Assembly: GCA_041740355.1 (NCBI GenBank) | Contig: JBGSMD010000005.1 | Coordinates: forward strand, 1 to 64,000 | Origin: Bdellovibrionota bacterium | GTDB taxonomy: Bacteria; Bdellovibrionota_C; UBA2361; CALJRW01 | DNA length: 64,000 bases | Reading direction: 5' to 3' | In this document: piece by piece, positions 9,095 to 61,060 of the stretch | Position numbering within the stretch: the stretch's first letter is position 1 | Layout of the letters: each line of letters begins with the position of its first letter | Position numbers and translations under genes: made by a program | Notes under the pieces: model-generated | What the model was told of the DNA's origin: nothing | The model's input: the letters and a program-made list of their open reading frames with translations, nothing else | Databases searched by the model: none

Positions 9095-9130
9095 AACAAC
9101 GCAAACTTGGATAAATCCAAGAGTTGCATT
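9050..9130 (+). repeat. Palindromic repeat family F, copy 1 (empty loop CTTGGA-TAAA-TCCAAG)
   Basis: TTTTGCCAAGACTCATTA...GCAAACTTGGATAAATCCAAGAGTTGCATT aligns by eye to 42202-42316. Confidence 0.6.
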
Positions 9131-18907: not shown

Positions 18908-18985
18908 AAACAATCTGGAAAAATAAAGAATCTCGCTCACACATTCGCTTCCTCTTACGCTAAAACATCAGAGGACTAGGCAGCT

Positions 18986-19045
18986 TCCACCTTCGCTAAA
19001 GCTTCCACCTTCGCTAAAGCTACGGCGGACAAGTCGGCGGACAAG
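18986..19045 (+). repeat. 30-bp family B unit nested inside another B unit
   Basis: TCCACCTTCGCTAAAGCT[TCCACCTTCGCTAAAGCTACGGCGGACAAG]TCGGCGGACAAG; degenerate unit just upstream at about 18950-18978. Confidence 0.9.
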
Positions 19046-42016: not shown

Positions 42017-42178
42017 TCCCTCTGGGGGATATATAGTGATGACAAAAAATAAATTACGTAAAAAGTATATAGATTAATTTGCTTTTTTGTCATAACTATA
42101 TGATTTTATTATCCCTCCGGGGGATAGAACGCCCCAAAAAGTAATTTTCTTACGTAAATTACTTTTTGGACTTTCTAT
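42017..42178 (-). repeat. Family A copy 3
   Basis: Inverted copy of 1-140, plus an extra linker TCCCTCTGGGGGATA at 42017-42031. Confidence 0.9.
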
Positions 42179-42448
42179 AGTTAGTCCAAAAAATAAATTA
42201 CTTTAAAACACTAACAATTTTGCTAGGACTCACTATTTATATTGTTTTTAGATATGCAAACTTGGATATCCACCGTAGCTTTTGCTTTGGTGCGACAAGA
42301 CTCCAAGATTTTCATTAGCTGAAATGACCCTGTTAAATTTACTAACCAGCCTTCGCAGAAGCTTCGGCTAAGCAGGCAGAAAATTATTTATTGTCATTAC
42401 TATATTTAGCTCCAAAAAGTAATTCCTGATGGAAAGTACTTTTGGCCT
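42177..42448. repeat. Composite repeat: A-type hairpin arms enclosing family F copy 2 (with B-variant in its loop) and a B unit, followed by another A hairpin
   Basis: Left arm 42177-42201; F about 42202-42316; insert 42269-42299; B-like CCAGCCTTCGCAGAAGCTTCGGCTAAGCAGG 42346-42376; right arm 42379-42405; hairpin 42407-42448. Confidence 0.65.
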
Positions 42449-42676
42449 TACTAGGCCTGAATTCCAACGACACTATTTGTTACTTTATAAGCAATCAGAA
42501 GAATCTTACCCGCTATTTGAGTATTTAAGGATTTTTCCCTGATAGTTTAAGACACAAATGCAGAAACATTCTCAGCTCATCAATCGAATAACAAATAACT
42601 ATTCTTATGATTTTTTTTAATAAATTAAAAAATATTTAGAAAATGAATGATTTCAAGTGCCAATATAAATAAACAA

Positions 42677-42741
42677 TATCAAGCACTTAGCTGTTAATTC
42701 TAGTTTAGGCACTTGACAACCTAGGACAAAATACATAATTT
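42677..42741 (+). promoter_or_regulatory. IHF consensus site and sigma70-like promoter upstream of the M23 peptidase
   Basis: TATCAAGCACTTA matches WATCAANNNNTTR with an upstream A/T tract; TTGACA (42713)-17 bp-TAATTT. Confidence 0.45.
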
Positions 42742-42765
42742 CGCACTGTTCCGTAGGAACAAACT

Positions 42766-43656
42766 ATGTCAGTGAAAAATAAAGACTACTACACCATCTG
42801 GATTCATTCTTCTGGATTTAGAGGGATAAAACGTCTCAAAATACACAAAAGAGCTCTTGTTTCATTTCTTGTAAGCTCTACCGTTTCTTTGATGTTAACC
42901 GTAAGTTTTCTCGGGTCGCGTCTTCCTATTCAACAAGACTACATCTCTAATATTTCTTATAACAATTTCATGGCTAGCCATCAGGTTTACCGTGAGCTTA
43001 AATCACAGTTATCTGGGCGATTAAGCGAATTAGGTGCTGTTTTAAAGTCAGCCGGTGACTTGGGTGTTATTAGTCAACGCAAGTTAGAGGCTTTAGATTT
43101 AGGTGATATTAACTCCATTGGAGGTCTTGATTACGAATGTGAAGGTGAAGCCTGTGTACAAAAGGTTGTTCTTTCTCCCTCGGTACTTAGTACTAATCAG
43201 TTAATTGAAAAAACAAAGGCTTACGAACAGTTATTTAAAAAATTGCCGCTTAATTTCCCGCTAAAGTCTGGGCGGATGACTTCTCCTTTTGGGAACCGTA
43301 AATCACCGTTTTCTAGCGGTTGGAAGATGCACCGTGGAGTTGATATCGGTGCCAAGTATGGAACGGAGGTCTATTCGAGCTCTCATGGCAAGGTAATTAA
43401 TGTTGAGTATCATGCAACCTACGGTAAAGTTGTGGACATTCGTCACAATAAAGATGTTGTCACGCGTTATGCTCATTTGTCGCACGTTAATGTCAAAGAA
43501 GGTCAGCGAGTTACAGCGGAAACTGTGATCGGTAAGGTTGGAGCAACAGGGAGAGCCACTGGCCCACATTTACATTACGAAATTATTGTTAATAATAAGC
43601 CACTTAACCCCCAACATCTAATCAGCTTGGGTAGCCTTGCTCAGAAACTACTCTAG
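42766..43656 (+). CDS. M23 family metallopeptidase (membrane-anchored)
   Basis: N-terminal TM, HRGVD (HxxxD), YAHL, TGPHLHYE (HxH). Confidence 0.92.
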   Translation: MSVKNKDYYTIWIHSSGFRGIKRLKIHKRALVSFLVSSTVSLMLTVSFLGSRLPIQQDYISNISYNNFMASHQVYRELKSQLSGRLSELGAVLKSAGDLGVISQRKLEALDLGDINSIGGLDYECEGEACVQKVVLSPSVLSTNQLIEKTKAYEQLFKKLPLNFPLKSGRMTSPFGNRKSPFSSGWKMHRGVDIGAKYGTEVYSSSHGKVINVEYHATYGKVVDIRHNKDVVTRYAHLSHVNVKEGQRVTAETVIGKVGATGRATGPHLHYEIIVNNKPLNPQHLISLGSLAQKLL

Positions 43657-43764
43657 TAATACTTCAGGATTTGGTTGATTTTCAAAGAAAAAAATACTTA
43701 TTTTTTAAGTATTTTAGCTGGGGAAACCAAGATACTCCAATGCCTAAAAACTAAAAATGAATTT

Positions 43765-43806
43765 CTTGTTCGCCGACTTGTCCGCCGTAGCTTTAGCGAA
43801 GGTTGA
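43765..43806 (-). repeat. Family B unit plus half unit
   Basis: Reverse complement TCAACCTTCGCTAAAGCTACGGCGGACAAG-TCGGCGAACAAG, nearly identical to 19004-19045. Confidence 0.9.
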
Positions 43807-44080
43807 TGTATTCTTCCAAGCTGCTCAGTAATTCTTAATGTTATTCAGTATGCTAAGAAACTGATTCAATTTTAGTATTTATCATTGTCACCTTGTTGCG
43901 ACTAGCTTAACTAACTGTGGCACACTTACATTTTTGTCAAATTTTTTAATTTGCCCTACCTACAAACTCTTAGGGTTTATCTACTTTAGTTTTTTGATAG
44001 TGCCTTTTTGTCGTTAGATAATTGCTGATATCTCAAAAAAATGCTATCTAATTGTGCATAAATTTATACTTAATTATTTC

Positions 44081-45007
44081 ATGTCTAGAAAAAAAATTGC
44101 CTTAATTGGCGCCGGTCAAATTGGTGGTACTTTAGCGATGTTAACAGGCTTACGTAATCTGGGAGACGTCGTTCTTTATGATATAGTGGAAGGAATGCCA
44201 GCAGGGAAAGCCTTAGACATTAGCCACCTGTCTCCAGTTTTTGGATTAGATTTTAAAATCACTGGAACTAATAATATCGCTGATATTGCTGATGCTGATA
44301 TCTGTGTTGTTACATCTGGACTTCCAAGAAAACCCGGTATGTCACGTGATGACCTACTTAAGATTAATTCTGACATCGTCACAAGTGTTGCCGAGTCAAT
44401 TAAGAAGTATGCACCAAACACTTTAGTGATAGTTACCACAAACCCACTAGATGTGATGGTTTATCAGATGTTTAAAAAGACTGGATTTGCCGCTAATAAA
44501 GTAGTGGGAATGGCGGGAGTGTTAGATACAAGTCGCTATCGTGCCTTCTTAGCTGAAGAATTAAATGTTTCAGTTGATTCAGTTTCTGCTTTTGTTCTTG
44601 GTGGACATGGCGATGCTATGGTTCCTGTACGTTCATATACAAACGTAGCAGGAATCCCAATTGAAAAATTACTTGATTCCGCAACTCTTGATCGGATTGA
44701 AGCCCGAGTAAGAAATGCCGGCGGGGAAGTTGTAGCTTTACTTAAAACTGGTTCTGCCTTTGTTTCACCAGCAGCAGCTTGTATCCAAATGATGGAGAGC
44801 TATTTATTTGACCAAAAAAAATTACTTCCAGTAGCTGCTTATTGTCAGGGTGAGTATGGCATTAAAGACTTATACATTGGGGTACCTGTAATTATTGGTG
44901 CTGATGGAGTTGAAAAGATTATGGAAATTGAATTGAATGCTGCTGAAAAAGCTGAGCTTGAAAAGTCAGTAGAAGGCGTTCAGTCAATGGTTAACTTAAT
45001 ATCATAA
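44081..45007 (+). CDS. mdh: Malate dehydrogenase (LDH-like)
   Basis: [33 protein letters not shown]; ATG 44081. Confidence 0.96.
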
Positions 45008-45014
45008 AAATAAA

Positions 45015-45707
45015 GTGGATCTAATTGCTTTTTATCGTTCAACAATAGGGAAGAAGGTTATCGTAGCACTAACGGGCTTAATGCTTGTTGGCTTCGTAAT
45101 TGGACACATGGCAGGAAACTTAAAAGCCTTTGCCGGTGCTGATGTTAATGGAGTTCATAAACTCGACCATTACGCGGAATTCTTAAGAACTTTTGGTCAA
45201 GACATTTTAGGATATGGTGGCTTTCTTTGGATTGCACGGATCGGATTATTAATAGCAGTAATTATGCACATCGTTGCCATCGTTCAGCTTCGCAATTTGA
45301 ATCGACGGGCACGACCTCAGGGATATCATTCAGAAAAGAAGGATTTATCTAAGTTAGCTGTAAACCTAATGTTTGTTGGTGGCTTGTCGATTGCCGCGTT
45401 CATTGTGTTTCATTTACTTCATTTAACTTTTGGAGCAATTCACCCCAGCTTTGAAGCAGGTAAAGTTTACCGCAATATTTTGATTGCCTTCCAGAATCCT
45501 TTTATTACCTTAATATATATTGTAGTGATGTGTTTCCTTGGATTACATCTTTACCATGGGGTTTGGAGTGTTTTTCAAACTCTTGGACTCAATCGTCCAA
45601 GATATGATTCATACATTAGACTTGGAGCAAAAGTTATTGCTGGCACGGTAGCCTTTGGTTTCATGATTGTTCCTCTGGCAATTTTGTTTGGTTTTTTATC
45701 AGCGTAA
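45015..45707 (+). CDS. sdhC: Succinate dehydrogenase cytochrome b subunit
   Basis: STIGKK..ALTG, HMAGNL, conserved His residues in TMs, HG.WS.FQTLG. Confidence 0.92.
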   Translation: MDLIAFYRSTIGKKVIVALTGLMLVGFVIGHMAGNLKAFAGADVNGVHKLDHYAEFLRTFGQDILGYGGFLWIARIGLLIAVIMHIVAIVQLRNLNRRARPQGYHSEKKDLSKLAVNLMFVGGLSIAAFIVFHLLHLTFGAIHPSFEAGKVYRNILIAFQNPFITLIYIVVMCFLGLHLYHGVWSVFQTLGLNRPRYDSYIRLGAKVIAGTVAFGFMIVPLAILFGFLSA

Positions 45708-45713
45708 TTTCAA

Positions 45714-47630
45714 ATGACATTAAATTCTAATATTCCTTCTGGTAATATGGCTGATAAGTGGACGAACCATAAGTTCTCCATGAAGCTTGTTAATCCCTCT
45801 AATAAAAGAAAATATAAAGTAATTGTGGTTGGCACAGGACTTGCGGGCGCCTCGGCTGCTTCAACAATGGCTGAACTTGGTTACGATGTTCATGCCTTTA
45901 CTTTTCATGATTCACCAAGAAGAGCTCATAGTATTGCTGCTCAAGGTGGAATTAACGCTGCTAAGAATTATCAAAATGATGGTGATAGTGTTAATCGTTT
46001 ATTCTATGACACAGTTAAGGGTGGTGACTTCAGATCTCGTGAAGCTAATGTTCACCGCTTAGCTGAAGTTAGTGTTAATATTATCGATCAGTGTGTTGCT
46101 CAGGGCGTTCCATTTGCCAGAGAGTATGGTGGGTATTTAACAAACCGTTCTTTTGGTGGAGCTCAGGTTTCCAGAACTTTTTATGCTCGTGGACAAACTG
46201 GACAACAATTGTTGTTAGGAGCTTACTCCGGGCTTTCTCGTCAAATCTCCAGCGGTGGAGTTAAGATGTATAACAAAATGGAAATGCTTGATGTGGTGAT
46301 TTCTGATGGACGTGCTGTTGGTATTACTGTACGTAATTTGATTACAGGAGAAATTACTACTCATTCAGCAGATGCCGTTGTCTTGGCTACTGGTGGATAT
46401 TCCAACGTCTATTACTTATCAACTAATGCCATGTTATGTAATGTAACGGCGTCGTTTCGTGCTTATAAAAAAGGAGCCTATTTTGCTAACCCTTGTTTTA
46501 CTCAAATTCATCCTACTTGCATCCCTGTTTCTGGCGATTACCAGTCAAAGCTAACATTAATGTCCGAATCTCTTCGTAATGATGGAAGAATTTGGGTTCC
46601 AAAAAATAAAAACGATACCCGTCCTGTTGCACAGATTCCCGAATCTGAAAGAGACTATTTCTTAGAAGAACGATATCCAACATTTGGTAACTTGGTTCCA
46701 AGAGATATTGCCTCTCGTAATGCTAAGGAACGCTGCGATGCCGGCTTCGGAGTTGGTGGTAGTGGCTACGGTGTCTATCTTGATTTTGCAGAATCAATTC
46801 AAAGATTAGGAAAGGACACAATTGCCGATCGTTACGGTAACTTATTCGAAATGTACGAAAGAATTACTGGTGAAGATCCATTTAAAATTCCAATGAGAAT
46901 TTACCCAGCACCTCACTATACTATGGGTGGACTATGGGTTGATTATAATTTGATGACCAATGTTCCTGGACTTTTTGCCATTGGTGAAGCAAACTTTTCT
47001 GATCATGGAGCAAATCGCTTGGGTGCGAGTGCCTTGATGCAAGGACTTGCTGATGGTTACTTTGTACTTCCTGCAACAATCGGTAATTTTTTAGCGAATG
47101 TTAAACCGGCGGCCAAAGACTTTGCTAACTTGAATGAATTTTCAGAATCAAAATCAGAGCAGGAAAAGCAAATTGCTAAACTTTTAAGCATTAAAGGAAA
47201 TCGCACTGTTGATTCTATTCATCGTGAGTTGGGAAGGATCATGTGGGATAACTGTGGAATGGCTAGAAGCAAGGAAGGTTTGGAAGAAACCTTAGCGACG
47301 ATTCCAAAAATTCGGGAAGAGTTTTGGAATAATATTTCAATTCCCGGTGATTCTAAAGACCTAAATGCCACACTTGAAAAAGCAGGTCGTGTTGCTGACT
47401 TTATTGAATTTGCTGAAATAATGTGTCACGACGCCCATGATCGCAATGAATCTTGTGGTGGTCACTTTCGTGAAGAATACCAAACTCCAGGAGGTGAAGC
47501 TTTACGTAATGATGAAGAATATGCTTATGTTTCGGCTTGGGAACATCAAGGATTAGGTAACAGACCTAAGTTACATAAAGAAGAATTAGTTTTTGAAGAT
47601 GTGAAACCATCTCAACGAAGTTACAAATAA
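45714..47630 (+). CDS. sdhA: Succinate dehydrogenase/fumarate reductase flavoprotein
   Basis: [37 protein letters not shown]. Confidence 0.96.
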
Positions 47631-47653
47631 GAAGTTATAAATAAATCGTTAGT

Positions 47654-48433
47654 ATGAAGATTAAATTAAAGATTTGGCGACAAAAAGATAGTAAGTCTCA
47701 AGGTGAGTTCGTTAACTATGAACTTGATGAGGTGAGTGAGCATATGTCTTTCTTAGAAATGCTAGACGTACTTAATGAACAATTAGAATCCAAGAATCAA
47801 GAACCAATCGCTTTTGAACACGATTGCCGTGAAGGAATTTGTGGATCATGTGCTTTGATGATTAATGGTTGCGCTCATGGTCCAGAAGCTGCCACAACAA
47901 CTTGTCAGTTACATATGCGTTGTTTTAAAGATGGTGATTCGATTGTAATTGAACCATGGCGTGCTTCTGGTTTTCCAGTTGTTAAAGATTTGGTCGTTGA
48001 TCGTTCTGCATTTGATCGAATTATTCAAGCAGGCGGATATATCTCTGTTAGTACTGGCTCTGCTCAAGATGCTAACCTTATTCCAATTTCAAAACCTGTT
48101 GCAGATAAATCAATGGACGCCGCTGCATGTATTTCTTGTGGAGCTTGTGTTGCCGCTTGTCCAAATGGATCGGCAATGTTGTTTACAGCTGCTAAGGTTG
48201 CTCACTTAGGACTTCTTCCTCAAGGGCAACCGGAACGATACCGTCGAGTTAAAGATATGGTGGAGCAAATGGATAACGAACGTTTTGGATCTTGCACAAA
48301 CTATGGTGCCTGTCAGGACGCTTGTCCAAAATCAATCAGCATTGAATTCATTAGTCGAATGAACCAGGATTACATTAAGGCACAATTCTTAGCTCGTATT
48401 AAGAAGGATGATGCTCGGATTAAGGCACAGTAG
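47654..48433 (+). CDS. sdhB: Succinate dehydrogenase iron-sulfur subunit
   Basis: [33 protein letters not shown]. Confidence 0.96.
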
Positions 48434-48578
48434 TCTTAACCAATTTAAAAGTACCATTATCTTTATTAACTTCCTGATTGTAATAAGTAGTGTTTTTGTA
48501 ACTTACGCGAAATCTGATATTTCAACTAATTGTACATTGCTAAATTCTAATAAAGTTTGTGTGGAGTGTAGATAATTT

Positions 48579-49121
48579 TCATGGGGGACATTGTGAGCAA
48601 TCAGCACTCACACTGCCCTGTCCTTGATTCATGCTAAGGTTACCTCGGATTTTACCATAAGAATCTACATTGGAAGGATAAATAAAATAGGAAGTATTGC
48701 CTGGATATTCTGGACTAATTGTTCCACAACAGTGACTGGTATTTCCGTCATGATTACTTTGGGATCTCATCGACGAAGCAAAGAATACCTTTGGGTCAGG
48801 AACGTAACCAGGTAAAGCTTGGCTTAGAGTATAACCGGCAAAACCAGACCATGTTCCCGTAGCATTTACTACAATTTCTCTAGCCGGATTATATCCAATG
48901 CTAAATTGAGAAGTACCAAAAGGTTGAGGTATCCTACCTATGTGATCAGCTATAAATGCTTCTCGACTAGTATTAAGTGCATAAACATGAGAAATTGCTA
49001 CAGAATCATTTGCACGTCTTCTGTAGCTATCGAAAATTGCTATTGAAATTGAAGATATAATACCAACAATGGCTACAGTGACCAACAGCTCAATAAGACT
49101 AAATCCTGATACTTTTTTCAT
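48579..49121 (-). CDS. Type IV pilin-like protein
   Basis: Prepilin site G|FSLIELLVTVAIVGII with Glu5; Cys-rich C-terminus. Confidence 0.88.
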   Translation of the reverse strand: MKKVSGFSLIELLVTVAIVGIISSISIAIFDSYRRRANDSVAISHVYALNTSREAFIADHIGRIPQPFGTSQFSIGYNPAREIVVNATGTWSGFAGYTLSQALPGYVPDPKVFFASSMRSQSNHDGNTSHCCGTISPEYPGNTSYFIYPSNVDSYGKIRGNLSMNQGQGSVSADCSQCPP

Positions 49122-49236
49122 TTTTTTGCTAACATAATTATTGGCCTTCCGTTTTTAACTATTTTTTATTGCCCCATTTGTTTATTTTCTCATTAAATAG
49201 CTATGGTTTCAATACTTTTACTTTTTCTTATGGATA

Positions 49237-49503
49237 TTAATAAAGAACGCTTATTTTTAGTGACCAATAGCTCATAAATTTGAGTGTTGTAACCGATATA
49301 ATTGAAATTACTAAGCCTTGCTTACGCAAATCGTCGCAGAGTTTAATTAGATTAGATTCAAACCTCCTAATAGAAATTAGAAATTTAGTCATGTTACAAA
49401 CAAGCCTATTTAAACCTCCCAGAAACGTGAATTCTTTCGGGGACAATGCAAGCGCCGCAGTAACCAAGAGTTCGATAAGACTGAATCCAGCTGCCTTCTT
49501 CAT
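49237..49503 (-). pseudogene. Truncated pilin paralog remnant
   Basis: MKKAAGFSLIELLVT matches the neighbouring pilin start, then the hydrophobic helix breaks off. Confidence 0.65.
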
Positions 49504-49731
49504 TTGGTGTTAATTTACATTTGATGTCCTAATTCCTTGACAGAACCCTATCTCAATCCTGACTCTAACAAACTACACATTCAATAGTATTTATTTTGCT
49601 GGAGATTATCATCTACCTATCTAGATCTTAGCTGGCTTCAGAATGCCACGATTATCTTAATTTCAGTTAACCACTGGCAATAAAATGTCATTTCAGCTAA
49701 AGTAGCATCGATTTTTAACATAATTTAATTA

Positions 49732-50892
49732 ATGAATTTACACGAATATCAATCTAAACAAGTTTTAAAAAGCTTTGGATTACCAGTACTTAGAGGATAC
49801 CTTTGTTACACTCCTGGTGAAATTGAAGCGGCTGCTGATAATCTGGGTGGTGACATTTGCGTTGTCAAAGCTCAGGTTCATGCTGGTGGTCGAGGAAAAG
49901 CTGGTGGGGTTAAATTAGCTAAGACTAGTGCTGAAGCACGTGAGCTTGGATCTAAAATCTTAGGGATGAGGCTTGTCACTCCGCAAACGGGTGAAGAAGG
50001 GAAGATTGTTCGTAAGGTTTACGTGGAAGATGGTTGTCAGATCGACAAGGAATTATACTTAAGCTTGTTAGTAGATCGCGCTAAGCGTTCCATCGCAATT
50101 ATTGCCTGTGCTGATGGTGGAATGGATATTGAAGAAATTGCGGAACACACTCCAGAAAAAATTATTTCTCGTTTCATCGATCCAAGAGCAGGACTACAAA
50201 GTTTTCAATGCATGGAAATTGCCTTAGCACTGGGTATTGATATTTCTTTAACTAGAAAATTTCAGGATATCTTAACTAAACTTTACCAAGTATTTATCGC
50301 TAAAGATTTAGATCTAATCGAAATCAATCCATTGGTAATTACTAAGTCTGGTGAGTTTGTAATTCTTGACGCTAAATGCTCAGTTGATGACAATGCCTTG
50401 TTTCGTCAACCAGATCTTAAAGAGATGATGGATTATGATGAAATGAATGAGCGTGACTTAGCCGCTTCTAAATTTGATCTAGCGTATGTTGGCCTAGATG
50501 GTGATATTGCTTGCATGGTAAATGGTGCAGGCTTGGCTATGGCCACAATGGACATTATCAAGTTTTCTGGTGGGGAGCCTGCTAACTTTCTGGATGTCGG
50601 TGGTGGAGCTTCGAAAGACAAAGTTGCCGCAGCTTTTAAGATCCTGTTATCTGATAAAAAAGTTAAAGGGATTTTAATTAATATTTTTGGCGGAATTATG
50701 CAGTGTGACGTTCTTGCTAATGGAGTAGTGGAAGCTGCTAAGGAAATCGGAGTTAAGGTTCCACTTGTTGTTCGACTTCAAGGAACAAACGTTAAAGAAG
50801 GTCGGGAAATCTTAGCTAAGTCTGGATTAAATATCGTCGCAGTAGAAACAATGGAACAAGCTGCAAGTCAAATCGTAAGCCTAACTAAATAA
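49732..50892 (+). CDS. sucC: Succinyl-CoA synthetase beta subunit
   Basis: [43 protein letters not shown]. Confidence 0.97.
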
Positions 50893-50900
50893 ATAAAAAA

Positions 50901-51767
50901 ATGAGTATCTTAGTAAATAAAAATAGTCGCATTATCACTCAAGGGATTACTGGAAAATCAGGATCTTTTCATACTAAAGCTTGCCGTGATTACGGAAGTA
51001 AAATGGTAGCAGGGGTTGGCCCAGGAAAAGGGGGAAGTAACTTTGAGGGGATTCCACTTTTTAATACAGTTAAAGAAGCGAAGAAAGCAACTGATGCTGA
51101 CATCAGTGTAATTTATGTTCCACCTCCCTTCGCTGCTGATGCCATCATGGAAGCTGTTGATGCTGAATTAGATTTAGTAATTTGTATTACGGAAGGAATT
51201 CCCGTTCTTGATATGCTTAAAGTTAAAGCATTTATGGACGGTAAGAAAACTCGTTTGATTGGACCAAACTGTCCGGGAGTTATAACTCCTGATGAATGTA
51301 AAATTGGGATCATGCCAGGTCACATTCATAAAAAAGGACGAATCGGTGTTGTCTCAAGAAGTGGAACTCTTACTTATGAAGCAGTGTTTCAATTATCTGA
51401 ATTAGGTCTGGGACAATCAAGCTGTGTAGGTATTGGTGGGGATCCACTAAATGGTACAAACTTTATTGATTGTTTAAGCTTATTCAAAGACGACGAAGAA
51501 ACTGACGCCATTGTAATGATAGGTGAAATCGGTGGAAGTGCGGAAGAAGAAGCTGCTGCTTGGATTAAAGAACATCTTAAAAAACCAGTGGTAAGTTTTA
51601 TTGCTGGAGCTACTGCTCCTAAAGGTCGTAAGATGGGACATGCTGGAGCAATTATCTCTGGTTCTGGTGGAACTGCCGAAGGAAAGTATGCCGCGCTGGA
51701 AGAAGCCGGTGTAAAAATTTCTAAATCTCCAGCCGAGATTGGCAAAATTATGAAATCATTATTGTAG
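50901..51767 (+). CDS. sucD: Succinyl-CoA synthetase alpha subunit
   Basis: [31 protein letters not shown]. Confidence 0.97.
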
Positions 51768-51771
51768 TAAA

Positions 51772-52761
51772 ATGAAAAAGATTGAATTAGTTGGCTTAGG
51801 AAATGGAATAGTTGATGCCTTAGTGGAAGCAAAGGATGAATTTATTCTAGAACATAATTTAGTCAAATCATCCATGACACTCGTGGATAATGATCGACAA
51901 AGCCAACTACTTTCTGCAGTTCAAGCAGATTATCTTAAAATTGCCTGCGGTGGTTCAGTTTGTAACACAATCTTTACTTTTGCTTCCGTTGGTGGAACTG
52001 CAGGAATGTTAACTTCTATCGGTCAGGATAATTTTGCTAATTTTTATTTAGATCAGTTAAATCTGCATCAAATCTCTCATGATGAGTCAGTTTCTCAATC
52101 AACAGAACCTACTGGTACTTCTTTAATATTTATCTCTCCAGATGGCGAGAGAACAATGTGTACTTGTTTGGCAGCCAGTGCTGAATTTTCTGTCAATCAT
52201 TTATCAAATGATTTGATTGCAAGTGCTAGGTACATGCTGATTGAAGGGTACTTATTAGCAAGTGACCTCGGTTGGGAAGCTGTTAAGAAAGCGATTCAAA
52301 TAGCCAAAGCTAATGATACAAAAATAGTAATGACCCTGTCGGCTGAGTTTATCGTCGCTGTATTTAAAGAGCGACTTGATGAAATTATGCCGCAAGTCGA
52401 TCTGCTTTTTGCAAACGACGGTGAAGCTGGATTGTATTTGGGAATAGCTCAAGCTAGTCTTTGTGCCTTAAAATTTGCCGAGACAATCTCGGAAGTTGTG
52501 ATCACGGATGGTCCGAATGGTTCTTACTATGCTTCTGGAAGTGAATTAATTCATGTTCCTGCAATTTCTTGTCAGCCAGTTGACTTAACTGGAGCAGGAG
52601 ATTCTTTTGCCGCTGGTTTTATGTCTGGAATCACAAAGGGGCTTAGTCCTCAAAAATCTTTGGAATTAGGAACATATCTAGCTTACCGAGTAATAACACA
52701 AGTAGGGGCACGGCTAGACGATTTATCTATTGATGAGTTGCGTAATAAGTCCTATCTATAA
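51772..52761 (+). CDS. PfkB family (adenosine kinase-like) carbohydrate kinase
   Basis: GGSVCNT, PDGERTM, DLTGAGDSFAAG. Confidence 0.9.
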   Translation: MKKIELVGLGNGIVDALVEAKDEFILEHNLVKSSMTLVDNDRQSQLLSAVQADYLKIACGGSVCNTIFTFASVGGTAGMLTSIGQDNFANFYLDQLNLHQISHDESVSQSTEPTGTSLIFISPDGERTMCTCLAASAEFSVNHLSNDLIASARYMLIEGYLLASDLGWEAVKKAIQIAKANDTKIVMTLSAEFIVAVFKERLDEIMPQVDLLFANDGEAGLYLGIAQASLCALKFAETISEVVITDGPNGSYYASGSELIHVPAISCQPVDLTGAGDSFAAGFMSGITKGLSPQKSLELGTYLAYRVITQVGARLDDLSIDELRNKSYL

Positions 52762-52904
52762 GATAGCTCTATATTTAAGCAACTAACAAATTAATATCTA
52801 ATTAGAATTCCGGAAAGCTAAAGCTATTCAGTTTTTAATTTTTAGTCACTTTATGTCTTCTCTCTTCTTTACTGACTAGAGAAAATTTTTTGAAGTTACA
52901 AAGA

Positions 52905-54086
52905 ATGTCTTTCAATATTTTCAAAGTATCATCAAAACTATTTTTACCGATAATCGCAATAATAATTATTTTATTTTTAATTTTTCTTCCAGAGATTATT
53001 GGAATTAAGTCAATCGATAATAGTAAAGAGGAGATTGCCGAGGTTTCAGAAACTGAGCCAGACTTGGATCAAGCAGAAAAACAATTAACGGGTGAAGTCG
53101 CTGAAAACCAAGCTCCGACTCCGAACGACTCAAATGCCGGATTTGAGGGGCTCGGTCTTAAAATTGGACGTTTTTTAAGCGATCGTAGTGGAAAATCTGT
53201 TAAAAGACAGCAAAATAATTCAGCAGTAAGTCAAACTAAGTTTACTTCTACACAACTAAATTCTTGGGAGGCGATAAAAGATCCCCTTGTTCAGAACAAC
53301 TTACAAAATAATTTACAATTACTGGATAAAGTTTTGACTAATGTTAGTGTGCGTTATCAAAGTTCCCGAAAGGAACTTCTTAAGTTCAAACAGATTCTAA
53401 CTTTATTAATTCAGCCAGCAGACGAGAATTCTCCAAAGCCACAAGATTTAATTGATCAATTAGAAAAACAGGATTTACAAGTAACTACTAGCTTACTCCA
53501 AGAGTTAGTTCCTATTAATATTTTAGAACTTTGGGCCATAGTAAATTTAAGTAGTTTTTATGAAAGTAACTTGCCTCAGCGTTTAAAAATATTAACTATC
53601 TCAAGTTTTAATCCGCGACTTCAAATCCACGATGCCACATTTTATCTTGTACAGAATTCGGCAAGTAGCAAGGAATCTAAACTGCAGTCGATTGGCTTAA
53701 ACTTTGCTTTACTTAAGGAAGGGGTTCGTGAGGTTAAGCTTTTCAAGAATAATATTCTTGTTGGAAAAATGGCGCTCAAATCTGATCGGGGAAATAATGA
53801 TTGGTCTACATTTCAGCTTGATGTAACAAGTGGAAAAGATATCTATTCAATATACGCATATGGTAATAATAATCAGATATTTGTAAAGCATTATCGCTTT
53901 TCAGAAAATTTTGAAACTTTGTCGTTGAAGGCGAAAGAAGTTAAGAAGCAAGACAGATTACAGTTATTATATGCTTCAGCAGAAAATAATACTGTTGGTC
54001 AGTTAAATTTGATTGATGAACTATACTCACTAAGACCTAAGGGAAGCCAGGAGGGGATAGATTTAGCCAATATGGAGAAATTTTAG
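52905..54086 (+). CDS. Hypothetical protein with N-terminal membrane anchor
   Basis: Long ORF, single N-terminal TM, no motif recognised; ATG 52905 preferred. Confidence 0.75.
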   Translation: MSFNIFKVSSKLFLPIIAIIIILFLIFLPEIIGIKSIDNSKEEIAEVSETEPDLDQAEKQLTGEVAENQAPTPNDSNAGFEGLGLKIGRFLSDRSGKSVKRQQNNSAVSQTKFTSTQLNSWEAIKDPLVQNNLQNNLQLLDKVLTNVSVRYQSSRKELLKFKQILTLLIQPADENSPKPQDLIDQLEKQDLQVTTSLLQELVPINILELWAIVNLSSFYESNLPQRLKILTISSFNPRLQIHDATFYLVQNSASSKESKLQSIGLNFALLKEGVREVKLFKNNILVGKMALKSDRGNNDWSTFQLDVTSGKDIYSIYAYGNNNQIFVKHYRFSENFETLSLKAKEVKKQDRLQLLYASAENNTVGQLNLIDELYSLRPKGSQEGIDLANMEKF

Positions 54087-54102
54087 CTAAAGCTAAGGAC
54101 AA

Positions 54103-54855
54103 TTAACAATTCTCAGAAATCTTGTACAGTTCTAGAAACTGTTCGTACTTTAAGCTTGCTCCTCCAACAAGTGCCCCAGAAACTCCTTGAACGGCTAGAA
54201 TTTGTTGATAATTATCAGGTTTAACACTACCGCCATATAGGATTGCCGCATTGCAAAATGGCTTTGTGTTTTTAATAATTTCGTTGATTTCTAGGACGGA
54301 ATCCTTAATATCTTGAATTGTTGCCACTTTACCAGTTCCAATTGCCCAAACAGGTTCGTAGGCAAGGATTAATTGATTATGATTTTTTTCATTGATTAAC
54401 TCCATTATCGGCAGAAGTTGATCTTGTAAAACTTTACTGCGATTTCCAGCTTCTTTCTCTGCTAGCGTTTCACCGAAGCAATAAACTAATTTTAGTTGAT
54501 TATCCAAAACACCAGATGAGCGTTTCGTGATTAAATCTTGAGATTCGCCAAGTACATGACGACATTCCGAGTGTCCGGTTAGACTGAAGGCGCAACCAAT
54601 TGCTTGCAACATGGAAGCAGAAACTTCCCCAGTAAAAGCTCCGTCATTTTCTTGATGGGCATTTTGACCACCGATCCATAGATCGCTACTATTACACTCA
54701 GCTATAACAGCTGACATGGCAAGAAAAGTAGGGGCAATCCCAACTTGTGTCCGATTTGAATTCTTAGTTAAAGAAACGTACTGGGAAATTAATTTACTTG
54801 CATCTTCTGGAAGTAGGTTCATTTTCCAGTTGCCAATCAGTAAGTGTTTGCTCAT
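54103..54855 (-). CDS. tpiA: Triosephosphate isomerase
   Basis: GNWKMN, GAFTGE, GHSE, AYEPVWAIGTG, YGGSV, LVGGAS. Confidence 0.97.
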   Translation of the reverse strand: MSKHLLIGNWKMNLLPEDASKLISQYVSLTKNSNRTQVGIAPTFLAMSAVIAECNSSDLWIGGQNAHQENDGAFTGEVSASMLQAIGCAFSLTGHSECRHVLGESQDLITKRSSGVLDNQLKLVYCFGETLAEKEAGNRSKVLQDQLLPIMELINEKNHNQLILAYEPVWAIGTGKVATIQDIKDSVLEINEIIKNTKPFCNAAILYGGSVKPDNYQQILAVQGVSGALVGGASLKYEQFLELYKISENC

Positions 54856-54937
54856 GTTTAATCGATAATAAAAAATTTAATGGAGTAATTAATTCAGCTG
54901 TTACTCGCGTAAGTGCTGATGATCTGAAAATTATAAA

Positions 54938-55092
54938 GCCTCAGCAGATAAAATTTGCGGAGGGTTTGGTATTGTTCACTACCGCAAAACCTGTAGTCCT
55001 CCTCCGCTAAAGTTATGGCGGAGAAGTCAACAGGATTTTGCTCCCTCACCGCCTTTCATTTTTTATCAAAAATGAAAAGCGGTGAGCGCAAA
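54938..55092 (+). repeat. Family D copy 1 (internally deleted; B unit at 54997-55026)
   Basis: Aligns to 60551-60772 and to the reverse complement of 57246-57446. Confidence 0.85.
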
Positions 55093-56106
55093 TTAGAATT
55101 TACTAGCAACTAATTTACAAACATCAAGCATGCGGTTTGAGAACCCCATTTCATTGTCATACCAAGAAACAACCTTCAACATGTTTTTGTTAATTACAAG
55201 AGTGCAATCTGCATCAATGATCGAAGAATGAGTATTTCCGATGTAATCAACAGAAACTAAAGGTTCTTCCGAATAACCTAAAATTCCTTTTAAATTAGTC
55301 TCGGAAGCTTTCTTTAATGCTGCTTTTACTTCTTCCACCGTTGTTTCTTTTTTAACAACACAAACAAAGTCAGTTAAAGAAACATCTGGTGTTGGAACAC
55401 GAACAGAGAATCCATCTACTTTACCTTTTAACTGCGGAAGAACTAATCCTACGGCTTTAGCCGCACCAGTTGTTGTTGGGATCATCGACAAGGCCGCTGC
55501 GCGGGCACGTCTTAAATCTTTATGTGGTAAATCCAAGATACTTTGATCGTTAGTGTAAGAATGAATTGTTGTCATTGTTCCACTAACAATTCCAAAATTC
55601 TCATCTATGACTTTAGCCATTGGTGCTAAGCAATTTGTAGTACAAGAAGCACAACTAATTACATTGTGATTCGCAGGTTCATAAGCTTCACTATTTACAC
55701 CAAAAGCCATTGTCAGATCCGGATCAGCAGAGGGAGCAGAGATTAATACTTTCTTACATCCACCTTGCAAATGCTTACCAGCCAAATCTTTTGTAGTGAA
55801 GATGCCCGTACATTCCAAAACAACATCAACTTCTAGTGATTTCCAAGGTAAGTTAGCCGGATCTCTTTCTGATAAAATTTGAATTTTCTTACCATTAACA
55901 ATGATTGATTTTTCATCATGCGATACTTCGCCTTCAAACTTACCATGGACTGAATCATACTTTAGAAGGTGAGCTAGTGTTCTCGAATCTGTTAAGTCGT
56001 TGATAGCTACAAGTTCAAAGTCGAATTCTTGCTTTCGTTTTTCAAGGCTTCGGAAAACATTACGTCCAATACGTCCAAAACCGTTAATTCCAATTCTTGT
56101 TGTCAT
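55093..56106 (-). CDS. gap: Glyceraldehyde-3-phosphate dehydrogenase
   Basis: GINGFGRIGR, ASCTTNCL, WYDNE; ATG 56106. Confidence 0.97.
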   Translation of the reverse strand: MTTRIGINGFGRIGRNVFRSLEKRKQEFDFELVAINDLTDSRTLAHLLKYDSVHGKFEGEVSHDEKSIIVNGKKIQILSERDPANLPWKSLEVDVVLECTGIFTTKDLAGKHLQGGCKKVLISAPSADPDLTMAFGVNSEAYEPANHNVISCASCTTNCLAPMAKVIDENFGIVSGTMTTIHSYTNDQSILDLPHKDLRRARAAALSMIPTTTGAAKAVGLVLPQLKGKVDGFSVRVPTPDVSLTDFVCVVKKETTVEEVKAALKKASETNLKGILGYSEEPLVSVDYIGNTHSSIIDADCTLVINKNMLKVVSWYDNEMGFSNRMLDVCKLVASKF

Positions 56107-56543
56107 TTTAATTCCTGTAAAATCGTAACAGCTCCACTCCATGTAAACTTCGGGAAGACATTACTTGCTGATTTGATAGCTGCTATTTCTCTAAAGAGAT
56201 TGGCAGCTCTGCTACACCTAAAGTTAAATTTTAGTGGTAGAGATTTATGGTCTAAATAATAGGTGTTAAATGACCTGAGTGTCAATCATCCTAAGTCCTT
56301 TTTTGAAGAAATTTACTATTGAAATTTAGCTACCTAAGCTTGCAAAAAACGATTACAATTTTGAGTGTTTTCTATGCCCAAGCTATTGTGATTTTAAGTT
56401 ACTTATAGCATTATCACTTATAACTAATCCGAGATTAATGTTAAGTATTTTTAATAAATTCTTTAATTTCGGCAAACTAAATACCAATGTTTGTTTTTAT
56501 ACAAAGTAAAATTTTGGTATATTTATTCAAATGTAATTAACTC

Positions 56544-57245
56544 ATGACTACAACTTCAGGCTCTGCCAATATTATCGCGATGGTTCAATCCTCAGGATTG
56601 GTCGTACAATTAGTCTTGTTTATCTTAATTTTTCTTTCAATTTTTAGTTGGGCAATTACTATTTCTAAGATCTTACAATATACAAAAGCACGTAAGACCT
56701 CTAAAGAGTTCGCCAAGATATTTTGGGAATCCCGTAATTTTACTAAAGTTGCCGATGCCTGTGAAGATTTATCAGCGAGTCCCTTAGCGCAAGTTTTTTC
56801 TGCTGGCTACAAAGAGTTATCGAATATCTTAGAAGATGAAAAAGAGAATCAAGCGGATGCTTCACCAACTAGTAAAGAAGCAAAGCTTTCTGTACTAGCT
56901 TCTTCTATGGAAAGATCTCAGTATGAAGAAAGCCTACGTTTAGAACGTGGCTTAACATTCTTGGCAAGTGTTTCTACCGCAGCTCCGTTTATTGGACTCT
57001 TTGGAACGGTCTGGGGGATTATGAATGCTTTCCACGGTCTTAGTCAGTCAACTACAACCAGTATCCAAGCTGTTGCGCCTGGTATTTCCGAAGCCTTAAT
57101 TGCTACAGCAATCGGTTTAGCAGCGGCAATTCCTTCTGCGGTGGCATATAACTATTTCGCAGTAGGTGTAAAAAATTTCCGTGAAAATATGCATAAGTTC
57201 TCTAATGAATTTATCAGTATTGCTGAACGTTATTTTGTTAAATAG
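56544..57245 (+). CDS. tolQ: Tol-Pal system protein TolQ
   Basis: PFIGLFGTVWGIM, APGISEALIATA.GL..AIP; cluster context. Confidence 0.93.
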   Translation: MTTTSGSANIIAMVQSSGLVVQLVLFILIFLSIFSWAITISKILQYTKARKTSKEFAKIFWESRNFTKVADACEDLSASPLAQVFSAGYKELSNILEDEKENQADASPTSKEAKLSVLASSMERSQYEESLRLERGLTFLASVSTAAPFIGLFGTVWGIMNAFHGLSQSTTTSIQAVAPGISEALIATAIGLAAAIPSAVAYNYFAVGVKNFRENMHKFSNEFISIAERYFVK

Positions 57246-57446
57246 TTATACTCCCCGCTTTTCATTTTTGAGAAAAAATGAAAAGAAAGGTGAGCGAGCA
57301 AAATCCTGTCGCAGGCAGGTTTTGCCGTAGAAAATACTACCAAACCCTACGCAACTCGGCGGTGAGTATTGGTTTTGTCTTCTACTGCGCAACTTGGCTA
57401 AAGCCAAGATTACGCTCGCCCTCCACAAATTTTATTTGCGGAGGGT
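57246..57446 (-). repeat. Family D copy 2 (about 200 bp, no B insert)
   Basis: Several hairpins (CTTTTCATTTTT..AAAAATGAAAAG; GCAAAATCCTG..CAGGTTTTGC; CTTGGCT-AA-AGCCAAG; CCCTCC..GGAGGG); homologous to the two other copies. Confidence 0.85.
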
Positions 57447-57480
57447 TTTAGCAAGGTTTACTTTTATTAATTAAAATCAA

Positions 57481-57915
57481 ATGGCAGGCGGACCGACAAG
57501 TTTTGATGGACCAGTTGCAGCAATTAACGTTACTCCTTTAGTGGATGTAATGTTAGTTCTGCTCGTAATTTTCATGGTTACAACACCGATGATTCAACAA
57601 GGTGTAGATGTTAAGTTGCCAAAAGCGGCAACGGGAAATCTTAGTGGCAGTGAAGAGCAGATAGTAGTTTCAATCGATAGCGCAGGAAAAGTATATGTTG
57701 GTAGCGAGAACGAAGTTACCTTAGAAGAACTTAGTCCGAAGATTAAGAAGATCATGGAGTCTAAAAAATCGGCTGGCGATAAAGTTTATGTTAAAGCGGA
57801 CGAAGCGATTGATTATGGTCAAGTCATGAAAGTAATGTCTGCTCTTTACCAAGGTGGTATTACAGAAGTTGGTCTAGTAACTGATTTACCGGAAGGTCCA
57901 CAAGGAACTAAATAG
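57481..57915 (+). CDS. tolR: Tol-Pal system protein TolR
   Basis: INVTPLVDVMLVLLVIFMVT, KAD..YG.VM. Confidence 0.93.
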   Translation: MAGGPTSFDGPVAAINVTPLVDVMLVLLVIFMVTTPMIQQGVDVKLPKAATGNLSGSEEQIVVSIDSAGKVYVGSENEVTLEELSPKIKKIMESKKSAGDKVYVKADEAIDYGQVMKVMSALYQGGITEVGLVTDLPEGPQGTK

Positions 57916-58850
57916 TGTCCTCATATGACGTCAAAGCCAAAGCTGAATATATTAACTTGGGTTTAACTCTTTCAATTCTTCTGCATGCGCTCTTAGTTAT
58001 TCAGATTTTCTCAAAAACAAGTTTTTCAAAAGATAAACTTCCGCCAAAGGTTATTTATTCTGTAAGTGTGGAAGGTGGTAAAAATCTTGGTGGGATTGCA
58101 CAGCTGCCGGACCCAAAAAATAAAGCAGATATCGCACCACCTAAAAAGGTTGCGGAGAAAAAAGCACCACCACCCGTAACTAAAAAAGAAGAAGTTGTTA
58201 TTCCTAAAAAGGAAGAAAAAAAACCAGAAGTTAAGCCAGAAGTAAAACCCGAGCCGAAAAAGGAAGAAGTCCCAGTTATCAAGAAAGAAGAACCAAAGAT
58301 AATTGAACCAAAAAAGGAAGAAGTTAAGAAAGCTGAACCAGTAAAAAAAGAGGAAATTAAAAAAGCTGAGCCTACTAAAACAGAAGAGGTAAAAAAGACC
58401 GCCGATTCAAAGCAGGAAACTAAAACTCCTCCCAAGAAAGAAACAACAAAAGAAGAGAATTATGAAGATGCTCTTCAAAAATACTTAGGAGAATCTACTA
58501 ATGCCGGAGGCCAAGGATTTGGTTCTGCCGGAACTGGTAAAAATGGACTGGGTGGTGGTGTTGTTAAATCACCAGCATGGTTTAAGTACAAAGAAGAGTT
58601 AGAAACCCAGATCAAAAAAGGTTGGAACTGGCATGATTCGGCAAGTCCATTAATCGCAGCTGTTAGCTTCAAAATTAGCCAAACAGGTGAGATTTCTGAT
58701 GTTCGTATTGTTCAGTCATCAGGAGATGGTAAATTTGATGATTCTGCATTACGTGCTGTAACAAAAGCTAGCCCAGTGCCGGCAGCACTTCCTGAGATAT
58801 ACGAAGATTTCAAAGAAGTAATTCTTGATTTTGAACCTGGGAAGTATTAG
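57915..58850 (+). CDS. tolA: TolA/TonB-like energy transducer
   Basis: TM with S..LH motif, Lys/Glu/Pro-rich linker, C-terminal SSG..FD.SA.RAV domain; between tolR and tolB. Confidence 0.85.
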   Translation: MSSYDVKAKAEYINLGLTLSILLHALLVIQIFSKTSFSKDKLPPKVIYSVSVEGGKNLGGIAQLPDPKNKADIAPPKKVAEKKAPPPVTKKEEVVIPKKEEKKPEVKPEVKPEPKKEEVPVIKKEEPKIIEPKKEEVKKAEPVKKEEIKKAEPTKTEEVKKTADSKQETKTPPKKETTKEENYEDALQKYLGESTNAGGQGFGSAGTGKNGLGGGVVKSPAWFKYKEELETQIKKGWNWHDSASPLIAAVSFKISQTGEISDVRIVQSSGDGKFDDSALRAVTKASPVPAALPEIYEDFKEVILDFEPGKY

Positions 58851-59198
58851 TTAGCGAGAAAAAATTGCGATACCATTATTCGCATTAAAAAACAGATACT
58901 AAAACTACTTAAAGTGGAAAATGCAACATACATTGCCGTCAGGACAATTCTTATCAGTTTTTAGTATACTTTATTTGGTTTACTATATTTCCCTCTCTTT
59001 TAAATGTTGCTAATATGATTTCACCGGTGACATTAAAAATTACCTTTTTAAATTTCGTTGCTTACTATATCAAGCTCAACGAGTTTGTAGCGACCTCCAA
59101 GGGTTAATCATCCAGTCTCGGTTTTTATTCGTGGCGCTTTGCCTTAGGTTCAATTCAATATAAAAAATGAGCTAACTTAATTTTATATTTATTAAAAA

Positions 59199-60491: not shown

Positions 60492-60550
60492 CAGTTAAAA
60501 TATGATTAATGGAGGCGGAGGTCTATTTTACACCGCATTCTTTAATTTAA

Positions 60551-60772
60551 ATCCTCCGTAGATGAAAATTGCGGAGGTTGGGCGGAGTCTTAAGTCAAGT
60601 TACGCCGTAGAAGACAAAACCAATAATCAGAGCTGATTTGCCCAGGGTTTGGTATTGTTTCTAGGGCAAGATATGCCTTCCTCTCCGCTAAAGCTATGGC
60701 AGGCAAGTCAACATGATTTTGCTCACACATCTTTTTTCTTTTTTTATCAGAAATGAAAAGTAAAAAGCATAA
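60551..60772 (+). repeat. Family D copy 3 (B unit at 60679-60707)
   Basis: CAAGTTACGCCGTAGAAGACAAAACCAATA...AGGGTTTGGTATTG aligns to the reverse complement of 57246-57446. Confidence 0.85.
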
Positions 60773-60900
60773 AATCTTTACTTTTGATAGTAGAGCTAAA
60801 AATGAGTAAACTTAGTTATAACAGCTTTACTTTTGGCTTTAAGTGATAACTCAATGTTTTTCTCTGTTTACAGAATTGATTACTTAGGCTAATACTGTCG

Positions 60901-61060
60901 CAAGACCTCTGCACAACTTCAATTCATTGTGCCACTAGCGTTTTAAAATTATAATTTGTTGTATTTCGAGACTCCTGTTCTAGGGCTCAAGATATTACCA
61001 TTTTTTTTATTTAAAGTTTGCTAGGTAGCTCATTTTCGATTGAGCTGTGCAGAGGTCTTG
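60901..61060. mobile_element. MITE-like 160-bp palindromic element
   Basis: Perfect 15-bp terminal IR CAAGACCTCTGCACA/TGTGCAGAGGTCTTG, with imperfect pairing continuing inward. Confidence 0.75.

Follow-up and report, generated by a model that had tools for sequence, protein, structure and literature searches.

A 30-nucleotide self-nesting hairpin repeat found in many bacterial phyla and its association with genes for small GIY-YIG nucleases

Introduction

The SDR repeats of Nostoc punctiforme and its relatives, reportedly described by Elhai and co-workers in 2008, are said to be mobile, hairpin-forming repeats of 21 to 27 nucleotides (nt) that nest in copies of their own kind, in small transposon-like repeats and in 7-nt tandem repeats and that leave no target duplication. 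Rickettsia palindromic elements, which are about 100 to 150 bp long and limited to one lineage, lie in frame inside protein genes. Here, we report the anatomy, scarless presence and absence, nesting, arm covariation, multi-phylum spread, in-frame insertions, gene adjacency and gene co-occurrence of a 30-nt hairpin unit recognized at positions 18986 to 19045 of a 64,000-nt stretch of Bdellovibrionota DNA, hereafter the window (contig JBGSMD010000005.1, C5:1-64000, of assembly GCA_041740355.1; a 3.27-Mb genome of 36% G+C in 74 contigs).

In PMC5861425, SDRs are reported as confined to one cyanobacterial subgroup. The GTAG- and CGTC-tagged REP families of Di Nocera et al. 2013 (PMC3733652) include some that are inserted in palindromes and in genes (“REP-decorated proteins”). 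Small single-domain GIY-YIG proteins flanked by cognate hairpin repeats were described as Ssn by Chenal et al. 2025 (PMC11893778); in single-stranded DNA they bind the hairpin of one strand and cut upstream of it, they ignore double-stranded DNA and RNA, and their gene-between-repeats layout resembles that of an insertion sequence. The unit reported here is best seen as a new variant among REP/SRM/SDR-type micro-repeats, presumably a mobile one, and the enzyme gene that is linked to it physically and statistically outside this genome is a small GIY-YIG nuclease gene.

Results

The stretch 18986-19045 reads TCCACCTTCGCTAAAGCT, TCCACCTTCGCTAAAGCTACGGCGGACAAG, TCGGCGGACAAG, that is, one 30-nt unit within a second copy of itself, and taking out positions 19004-19033 joins the flanks into one unit with 1 mismatch. 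This agrees with a sequence-only reading of the window, which had proposed the self-insertion; the further copies which that reading placed at 43777, 54997, 60679, 42269 and 42346 are all present, and its two “empty sites”, in one copy each of palindrome families D and F, are real paralogous empty sites (57283-57336 and 9102-9122; Table 1). At ≤3 mismatches, the 18-nt core given by that reading is matched 6 times in the window (0.02 expected; none of 100 shuffles reaches 6). A 30-base hairpin that lands without a scar in other hairpins, in itself and, in other bacteria, in genes is real, and it is near-identical in many phyla.

Genome-wide, 67 full-length units were found at ≤6 mismatches. Information content is 1.2-1.4 bits inside the unit and drops at both ends, to 0.2-0.7 bit upstream of position 1 and to 0.13 bit beyond position 30. 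A “peeling” census, in which units were removed and the genome was rescanned (≤7 mismatches), gave 84 units, made up of 76 top-level units and 8 outer units that are whole only after an inner unit has been removed. The earlier suggestion of a non-autonomous element, constant in length and junctions and far below the size of a miniature inverted-repeat transposable element, is supported. The inner unit always has the orientation of the outer one; in 7 of the 8 nestings it follows CGCT in the apical loop, and in 1, the site at 18986-19045, it follows AGCT. The two nested cases with differing arm types (C30 and C38) have inner arms that match each other and outer arms that do likewise, so that insertion fits and two local duplications do not. 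Among the 76 top-level units, 51 stand alone, 12 have an extra right part after them, 7 have an extra left arm before them and 6 have both; such partial forms would be products of slippage between tandem half-copies made by nesting. All except two of the top-level units are intergenic (74/76), although long frames cover about 85% of the genome; the remaining two are in doubtful frames of 91-105 amino acids (aa), and none of the 76 is inside a credible gene of this genome. Orientation is balanced by strand (39 plus, 37 minus), relative to flanking tandem genes (17 with, 19 against) and relative to local GC skew (42 to 34), and the split among tandem, divergent and convergent spacers (36/20/13) is in line with the amount of such DNA.

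The 30 nt consist of a 26-nt imperfect hairpin and a 4-nt tail, which confers orientation on the unit, the minus strand folding as CTTG-(TCCGCC)-GWA-GC-TTTA-GC-GAA-(GGYGGA). This strand folds better than the plus strand both as RNA (−11.4 versus −6.2 kcal/mol) and as DNA (−4.5 versus −1.7 kcal/mol), and the A-C pair of the dominant local variant on the plus strand is a G-U pair on the minus strand. Arm pairing was evaluated at 120 sites anchored on the 15-nt interior alone, with the arms unused for detection: 96 of these had at least 4 of 5 arm pairs, as against 32 of 360 when the partner was slid by 1-3 nt, and 45 stem types were seen. The hairpin is therefore maintained by compensatory change around a constant 16-nt interior. 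No Rfam family reached its gathering score in the entire window, the only match near the site being a chance one to Qrr (E = 2).

Presence and absence are exact to the unit. In 28 of the 84 events, the flanks, once joined, align without gaps to sequence elsewhere in the genome, so that filled and empty sites, which the sequence-only reading had pointed to, exist among paralogs differing by exactly 30 nt. No bases are duplicated at the paralogous empty sites of these 28 events. The pairs of filled and empty sites involve at least six families of host repeats, with the unit at the tips of palindromes: TTTTCTACGGCAAAACCTGTCT/GCGACAGGATTTTGC, GCAAATCTTGGATT/TATCCAAGTTTGC, CAAACCTGGTT/TAACCAGGATTTG and TTTTGGCT/CCCGCTGGTCGC (the slash marks the junction), a host hairpin AAAAAGCT/..AGCTTTTT, and a sister family of the 30-nt unit with a CAGAC/GTCTG stem. 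Of the 76 non-nested units, 15 have their junction enclosed by a perfect stem of 6 bp or more, compared with 2.4% of 3,000 random positions, which confirms the preference for stem-loops claimed earlier, as a strong enrichment and not a rule. The unit prefers single-stranded hairpin tips, including two positions in itself, both after GCT.

The proposed TC signature is not general: TC opens 62 of 84 units, but it follows only 18 of the 84, and in 8 of these 18 it is the start of a half-unit remnant. A 2-bp TC duplication or crossover core did not hold up, given empty sites without duplicated bases. CT precedes 38 of the 84 local units. A topoisomerase-type target rule (C at −4) was also tried and was dropped because the junctions, judged from their sequences, do not have it in common. 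The orthologous check was made against a same-genus genome about 77-80% identical, and it gave a composite empty site only, none being unit-precise: the spacer 43669-44007 before the malate dehydrogenase gene, 338 bp here and 8 bp in that genome (G001), holds the 43777 unit together with a repeat of about 70 nt that has more than 10 copies in G001. Contig-level data of one study over 42100-61000 gave no 30-nt presence or absence, the contigs ending at repeats.

Outside this genome, an exact scan for CCNCCTTCGCTNAAGCTWCGGNGG returned at least 124 loci, in Patescibacteria, Bacteroidota, Acidobacteriota, Verrucomicrobiota, Planctomycetota, Nitrospirota, Elusimicrobia, Omnitrophota-type candidates and Alpha-, Delta- and Gammaproteobacteria. 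Comparison of 125 instances again gave a sharp left limit, with position 1 (Y) pairing with position 26 (R), a weakly conserved 4-nt tail (0.3-0.9 bit) and no conservation past the tail. Tails include ACAAG (12), GCAAG (9) and ATAAA (7), among others, and the central pair is G-C in 56, T-A in 24, A-T in 13 and C-G in 3 instances. Across phyla, there is no bias in the base directly before the unit (A 37, C 18, G 38, T 32). Nested copies occur in other phyla too (L002, L009, L023, L041 and L087), as do many units embedded in 7-nt tandem repeats (L046, L061, L068, L076, L095 and L104). Ten genomes of other phyla hold 2, 7, 7, 12, 13, 16, 22, 51, 69 and 79 copies at ≤2 mismatches; a reversed-pattern control gave 0 in every genome searched. 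The exact core is present in 26 of 124 genomes of the host's own phylum, this genome included, in 12 of 101 Patescibacteria and 4 of 101 Bacteroidota (each with its centre genome included) and in 10 of the 41 nearest relatives; the highest unit count of the phylum is that of this genome (24 exact cores). Viral contigs carry the unit in 34 stretches on 31 contigs.

In low-G+C loci of other phyla, a single frame is open over the whole 264-nt locus and reads as a recognizable enzyme, with the unit translated as P/S-FAKAT/SAGK or AVALAKAG. Compared with solved structures, a Tgt fragment of Azambacteria (Patescibacteria; L015) has an exact 10-residue insert, LPAVALAKAG, RlmN (L083) has a net insert of 7 residues, and alanine racemase (L030) has 5 extra residues; the fragment at L024 had no match among solved structures. 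The earlier point that 30 bp preserves the frame and reads without a stop thus stands for other phyla, where inserts of the 10-aa type occur, and fails for this genome, whose credible genes have none. In residing in frame within genes the unit is like the Rickettsia palindromic elements; it differs from them in size and in their limit to a single lineage. In three in-frame copies in different genes of Patescibacteria (L017, L018 and L070), the unit is followed by GAAAAAT/A (...AGK-EK); the unit may be extended by 6 nt in this lineage, or this may be a preferred target.

At 5 of 124 unselected listed unit loci (L006, L032, L091, L096 and L100), a small GIY-YIG gene starts no more than about 40 nt from the unit. 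Across this genome and five unit-rich ones, a unit lies within 600 nt of 4 of 21 small GIY-YIG genes and of 0 of 9 large ones. The linked proteins are single-domain, about 80 aa long, match Pfam PF01541 (E values of 1e-11 to 3e-21) and end in KSGSGKAFANKR (alignment: Y-L-K-S-G-S-G-K-A-F-A-N-K-R; the L096 frame, which has X residues in its translation, was left out). Five of six fall in one weakly supported group (86/79) of the tree.

Neighborhoods of this clade were then compared in an evenly drawn sample of Patescibacteria, using the GIY-YIG frames at the 20 best clade loci (19 frames) and at 20 lower-scoring small GIY-YIG loci (14 frames). A unit-like hairpin lies within 400 nt of 8 of the 19 clade-locus frames, mostly 8-68 nt upstream; none of the 14 non-clade frames has a unit within that distance. 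In the host's own phylum, a unit lies within 300 nt of 11 of 20 clade genes, and the geometry is fixed, with unit heads toward the clade gene and CAAG tails outward: 9 units are downstream and oriented like the gene, 3 are upstream and oriented against it, and 2 overlap it. Clade members (full-length match of ≥85 bits, a cut-off set after the scores had been seen) were present in 9 of 12 unit-bearing and 14 of 89 other genomes of Patescibacteria (odds ratio, 16; Fisher P = 5.5e-5) and in 12 of 26 unit-bearing and 23 of 98 other genomes of the own phylum (odds ratio, 2.8; Fisher P = 0.029), P values that overstate the association because related genomes are not independent.

Table 1. Positions of the unit, related sites and Y1_Tnp loci (C5 coordinates unless another contig is given)
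Feature	Position	Strand	Remarks
Inner 30-nt unit	19004..19033	+	0 mismatches to genome consensus; nested at offset 18 of outer unit
Outer unit, left 18 nt	18986..19003	+	Split from right part by inner unit
Outer unit, right 12 nt	19034..19045	+	Split from left part by inner unit
Unit, core identical to consensus	43777..43806	-	Sequence match
12-nt right-half remnant	43765..43776	-	Directly after the 43777-43806 unit; “unit plus extra right half” form
Diverged unit	54997..55026	+	Tip of D-family palindrome; empty paralogs exist
Diverged 29-nt unit	60679..60707	+	Another D copy; tip position as in the 54997-55026 copy
Empty D-family palindrome	57283..57336	-	Tip CCTGCCT/GCGACAGG, ~57312/57313; paralog of filled D copies, 96-98% identity
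31-nt unit	42269..42299	+	Tip of F-type palindrome; central 14 nt inverted relative to consensus, read directly
Empty F-type palindrome	9102..9122	-	Tip TTGGATT/TATCCAAG; listed as empty paralog of a filled site
Unit-like hairpin, other stem (CAGCC/GGCT-G)	42346..42376	+	Fixed at palindromic-repeat tip
Y1_Tnp locus L125	C16:249549-249779
Y1_Tnp locus L126	C51:22273-22503
Y1_Tnp locus L127	C51:14303-14527
Y1_Tnp locus L128	C26:27811-28020
Y1_Tnp locus L129	C63:206275-206484

Discussion

The reading we prefer, and to which we give about even chances, is that of a non-autonomous, hairpin-forming micro-repeat that is gained and lost as an exact block, belongs to a multi-phylum family flanking GIY-YIG clade genes outside this genome and is recognized by such a nuclease. 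The clade of about 80 aa may be the unit's partner, its cutting and the resulting movement being modeled on Ssn. By that analogy, the folded unit, which folds better on the minus strand, would be recognized as single-stranded DNA by a GIY-YIG nuclease; the nuclease would make breaks, and host ligation or copy-repair would then complete the insertion or loss of a unit or the conversion of empty paralogs. That the GIY-YIG protein recognizes and cuts the unit, each step of movement and a partner in this genome are what we infer.

Several traits bring the unit close to the Ssn/SRM systems as set out in PMC11893778: oriented, short (20-50 nt) hairpin repeats in tens to hundreds of copies (the unit has 84 in 3.27 Mb), repeats flanking a small single-domain GIY-YIG gene, often on both sides, as the unit does at part of the clade genes in other genomes, and a broad phylogenetic spread with mostly intergenic copies. 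The minus strand of the local consensus starts with CTTGTCC; its TGTC, a possible variant of the CGTC tag, overlaps the stem. The unit differs in its stem of 5-6 bp with a GWA/GAA internal loop, in linked proteins that form their own group with the C-terminus KSGSGKAFANKR, in the lack of a linked gene in this genome, and in self-nesting, loop targeting and in-frame insertions, which are features of the unit and are not described for Ssn in the accessible portion of PMC11893778.

Besides the late choice of the clade cut-off and the relatedness of the genomes counted, the following points weigh against a GIY-YIG partner of Ssn type. Neither strand of the unit matches the SRM motif HGTCWY...RNCYNB; 0 of 76 units overlap a match to the SRM pattern, which has 3 matches in the genome and 3-7 in shuffles; and the unit strings are absent from 10 supplementary tables of PMC11893778. 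This genome, though the most unit-rich of its phylum, has no gene of the linked clade: its only small GIY-YIG gene (C15:68691-68903, L184) encodes 90 aa, reaches a score of 63 bits, differs from the clade at the C-terminus and lies more than 1.5 kb from any unit. Of the 26 unit-bearing genomes of the own phylum, 14 likewise lack a strong clade match. GIY-YIG nucleases hydrolyze DNA without a covalent intermediate, and a hydrolytic nuclease of this kind alone therefore cannot explain scarless insertion. The adjacency itself could arise if a small gene cassette lands beside such hairpins or uses them as terminators. Strong clade members are present in same-genus and same-family genomes. The L184 gene sits between two tRNA genes of opposite strand and is followed by other GC-rich hairpins (GCCCTTCGACTCCCTTTGGTCGCTCAGGGC), which may be its own cognate repeat.

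A bolder form of the GIY-YIG reading, which we consider possible and yet doubtful, would make the hairpin the mobile end of a new kind of transposable unit. An 80-aa GIY-YIG “transposase” would be bracketed by inverted hairpins, and solitary hairpins would be its non-autonomous offspring. The system would insert without a scar into single-stranded loops and, as 10-residue inserts, into essential genes, and it would have crossed phyla, possibly on phages, keeping a 16-nt recognition core. No enzyme gene was found between unit pairs in six regions of two other genomes.

That no dedicated enzyme is involved seems to us unlikely. Replication or repair accidents at hairpins (template switching, slippage), together with gene conversion among paralogous palindromes, would then suffice, the half-units being slippage products. 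Partial forms are indeed common (as counted above), many filled sites are copies of host repeats able to convert one another, and many units reside in this genome without a linked nuclease gene. Such accidents leave unexplained, however, why the 16-nt interior and the 30-nt limits recur in many phyla, why the geometry beside one gene clade is fixed and how the unit entered unrelated sites such as conserved genes; the nested arms of C30 and C38, too, match as expected for insertion and not for two tandem duplications.

A transposase of the HUH/RAYT type, the mover suggested by the sequence-only reading, is an improbable alternative. The hairpin would be derived from IS200/IS605 elements or be REP-like and would be moved in trans as single-stranded DNA by an HUH Y1 transposase (RAYT/TnpA) by “peel and paste”. 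Scarless presence and absence at hairpin tips and same-orientation nesting fit strand-specific single-strand transposition, and the build of the unit (stem, 3-nt mismatch, GC, TTTA loop) resembles that of REPs in PMC3733652, where imperfect palindromes of 20-40 nt with co-varying stems and G-T pairs offer a further likeness to REP/REPIN sequences. Y1_Tnp genes are present here (five frames of 324-341 aa in two subfamilies; Table 1) and in all five other unit-bearing genomes tested. No unit lies within about 1.3 kb of the 5 local Y1 genes, however, or within 1.5 kb of the 6 Y1 genes of those five genomes, so that none of 11 is flanked by the unit as a RAYT would be, and Y1_Tnp is found in 38 of 41 relatives irrespective of the unit (10/41). 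Orientation is unbiased relative to GC skew and genes, and the 125 instances have no conserved target tetranucleotide. The unit also departs from REPs in that its GTAG is inside the stem as an internal loop and is not an unpaired end tag, and in that units are single, not doublets, with frequent self-nesting; it departs from IS200/IS605-derived miniatures in lacking a fixed target, the preceding base being unbiased across phyla, and in its GC-skew orientation. The local Y1_Tnp genes each belong to an IS-like element in which roughly 100 bp before the gene and roughly 180 bp after it are conserved; the ends of these elements, which have 5-10 occurrences in the genome, some without the gene, are different from the 30-nt unit.

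A route through RNA, in which a transcribed hairpin would be spliced into the loops of further RNA molecules and then converted back to DNA, as in the model reported for SDRs, is in our judgment very improbable. It would suit the stable RNA fold and the plus-strand A-C pair, which becomes G-U on the other strand; that units are nested and lie in 7-nt tandem repeats agrees with what is reported of SDRs. Against it, orientation is unbiased relative to flanking genes (17 to 19), wobble-compatible pairs across phyla favor neither strand (G.T 5, A.C 4 and C.A 3 of 125), no link to a reverse transcriptase was seen, no search aimed at one having been made, and the experimentally studied analogue, Ssn, ignores RNA (PMC11893778). 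The likeness to SDRs is that of a very small, self-nesting repeat without target duplication (8 nestings and scarless sites for the unit; the SDR side as reportedly described), and by description, on which the comparison is made, the unit differs in being 30 nt long, in its multi-phylum spread and in its non-cyanobacterial host. An SDR of Nostoc type in a reduced cyanobacterium was ruled out by gene content (Tol-Pal, Kup, RecN and a Bacillus-type SdhA, that is, Gram-negative and non-cyanobacterial).

A conserved functional motif that is not mobile, for example a hairpin that binds a protein or resembles a terminator and is retained by selection, is hardly credible: the interior is strongly conserved, the arms co-vary and units often abut tRNA 3′ ends in other phyla (L012, L052 and L054), but the exact 30-nt presence and absence among paralogs, the self-nesting, the patchy distribution within one genus (8 of 36 species), the in-frame copies in unrelated genes, the occurrence in viral contigs and the lack of an Rfam match all speak against it.

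Judged solely by its core sequence and its translated readings, the family was not found in print: strings of 12 nt from the core matched nothing in the literature but 9 primers, by chance, the peptide readings had no match in the literature searched, and a literature search for very small nested mobile elements returned nothing that fits. If the GIY-YIG link is true, it provides a partner enzyme, open to testing, for a class of very small nested repeats that have lacked a known mover since their description in cyanobacteria. It would also extend the single-strand-specific Ssn nucleases, a group of interest for use as tools, by one recognition motif and one protein clade, both new. The unit explains short, near-identical inserts in unrelated phyla, including 10-residue inserts in Patescibacteria that otherwise resemble alignment or annotation oddities, and, in this genome, many intergenic composite repeats and probably some contig breaks.

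Some minor observations concern single sites and relatives of the unit. The inverted center of the 31-nt unit at 42269-42299 lies between its two arms as if the loop had been flipped by recombination between inverted arms. The palindromic repeat carrying the hairpin at 42346-42376 has about 30 genome copies with the CAGCC/GGCT-G stem, and a CCAGCC/GCTAG stem type occurs 20 times; a joint of 42346 to 42381 in the contig-level data looks like an empty paralog of another palindrome. Many contigs start or end in the palindromic repeat GCAAATCTTGGATT/TATCCAAGTTTGC (C10:32-76, C36:32-76, C53/C54/C56:39-98, C63 and C72:18-73), a family that probably causes assembly breaks. In the Patescibacteria sample, 15 of 17 exact matches are on the contig forward strand, although contig orientation is supposedly arbitrary, and other phyla are balanced. 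A second hairpin, alike in build (stem, GAA, GCC, TT, GGC, GTA, stem; e.g., CCCGTCGAAGCCTTGGCGTAGACGGG) and different in its letters, is paired with the unit in Alphaproteobacteria (L007, L013, L058, L119 and L124) and Acidobacteriota (L033, L059, L067 and L106), which suggests a wider superfamily of hairpins with GWA/GAA internal loops.

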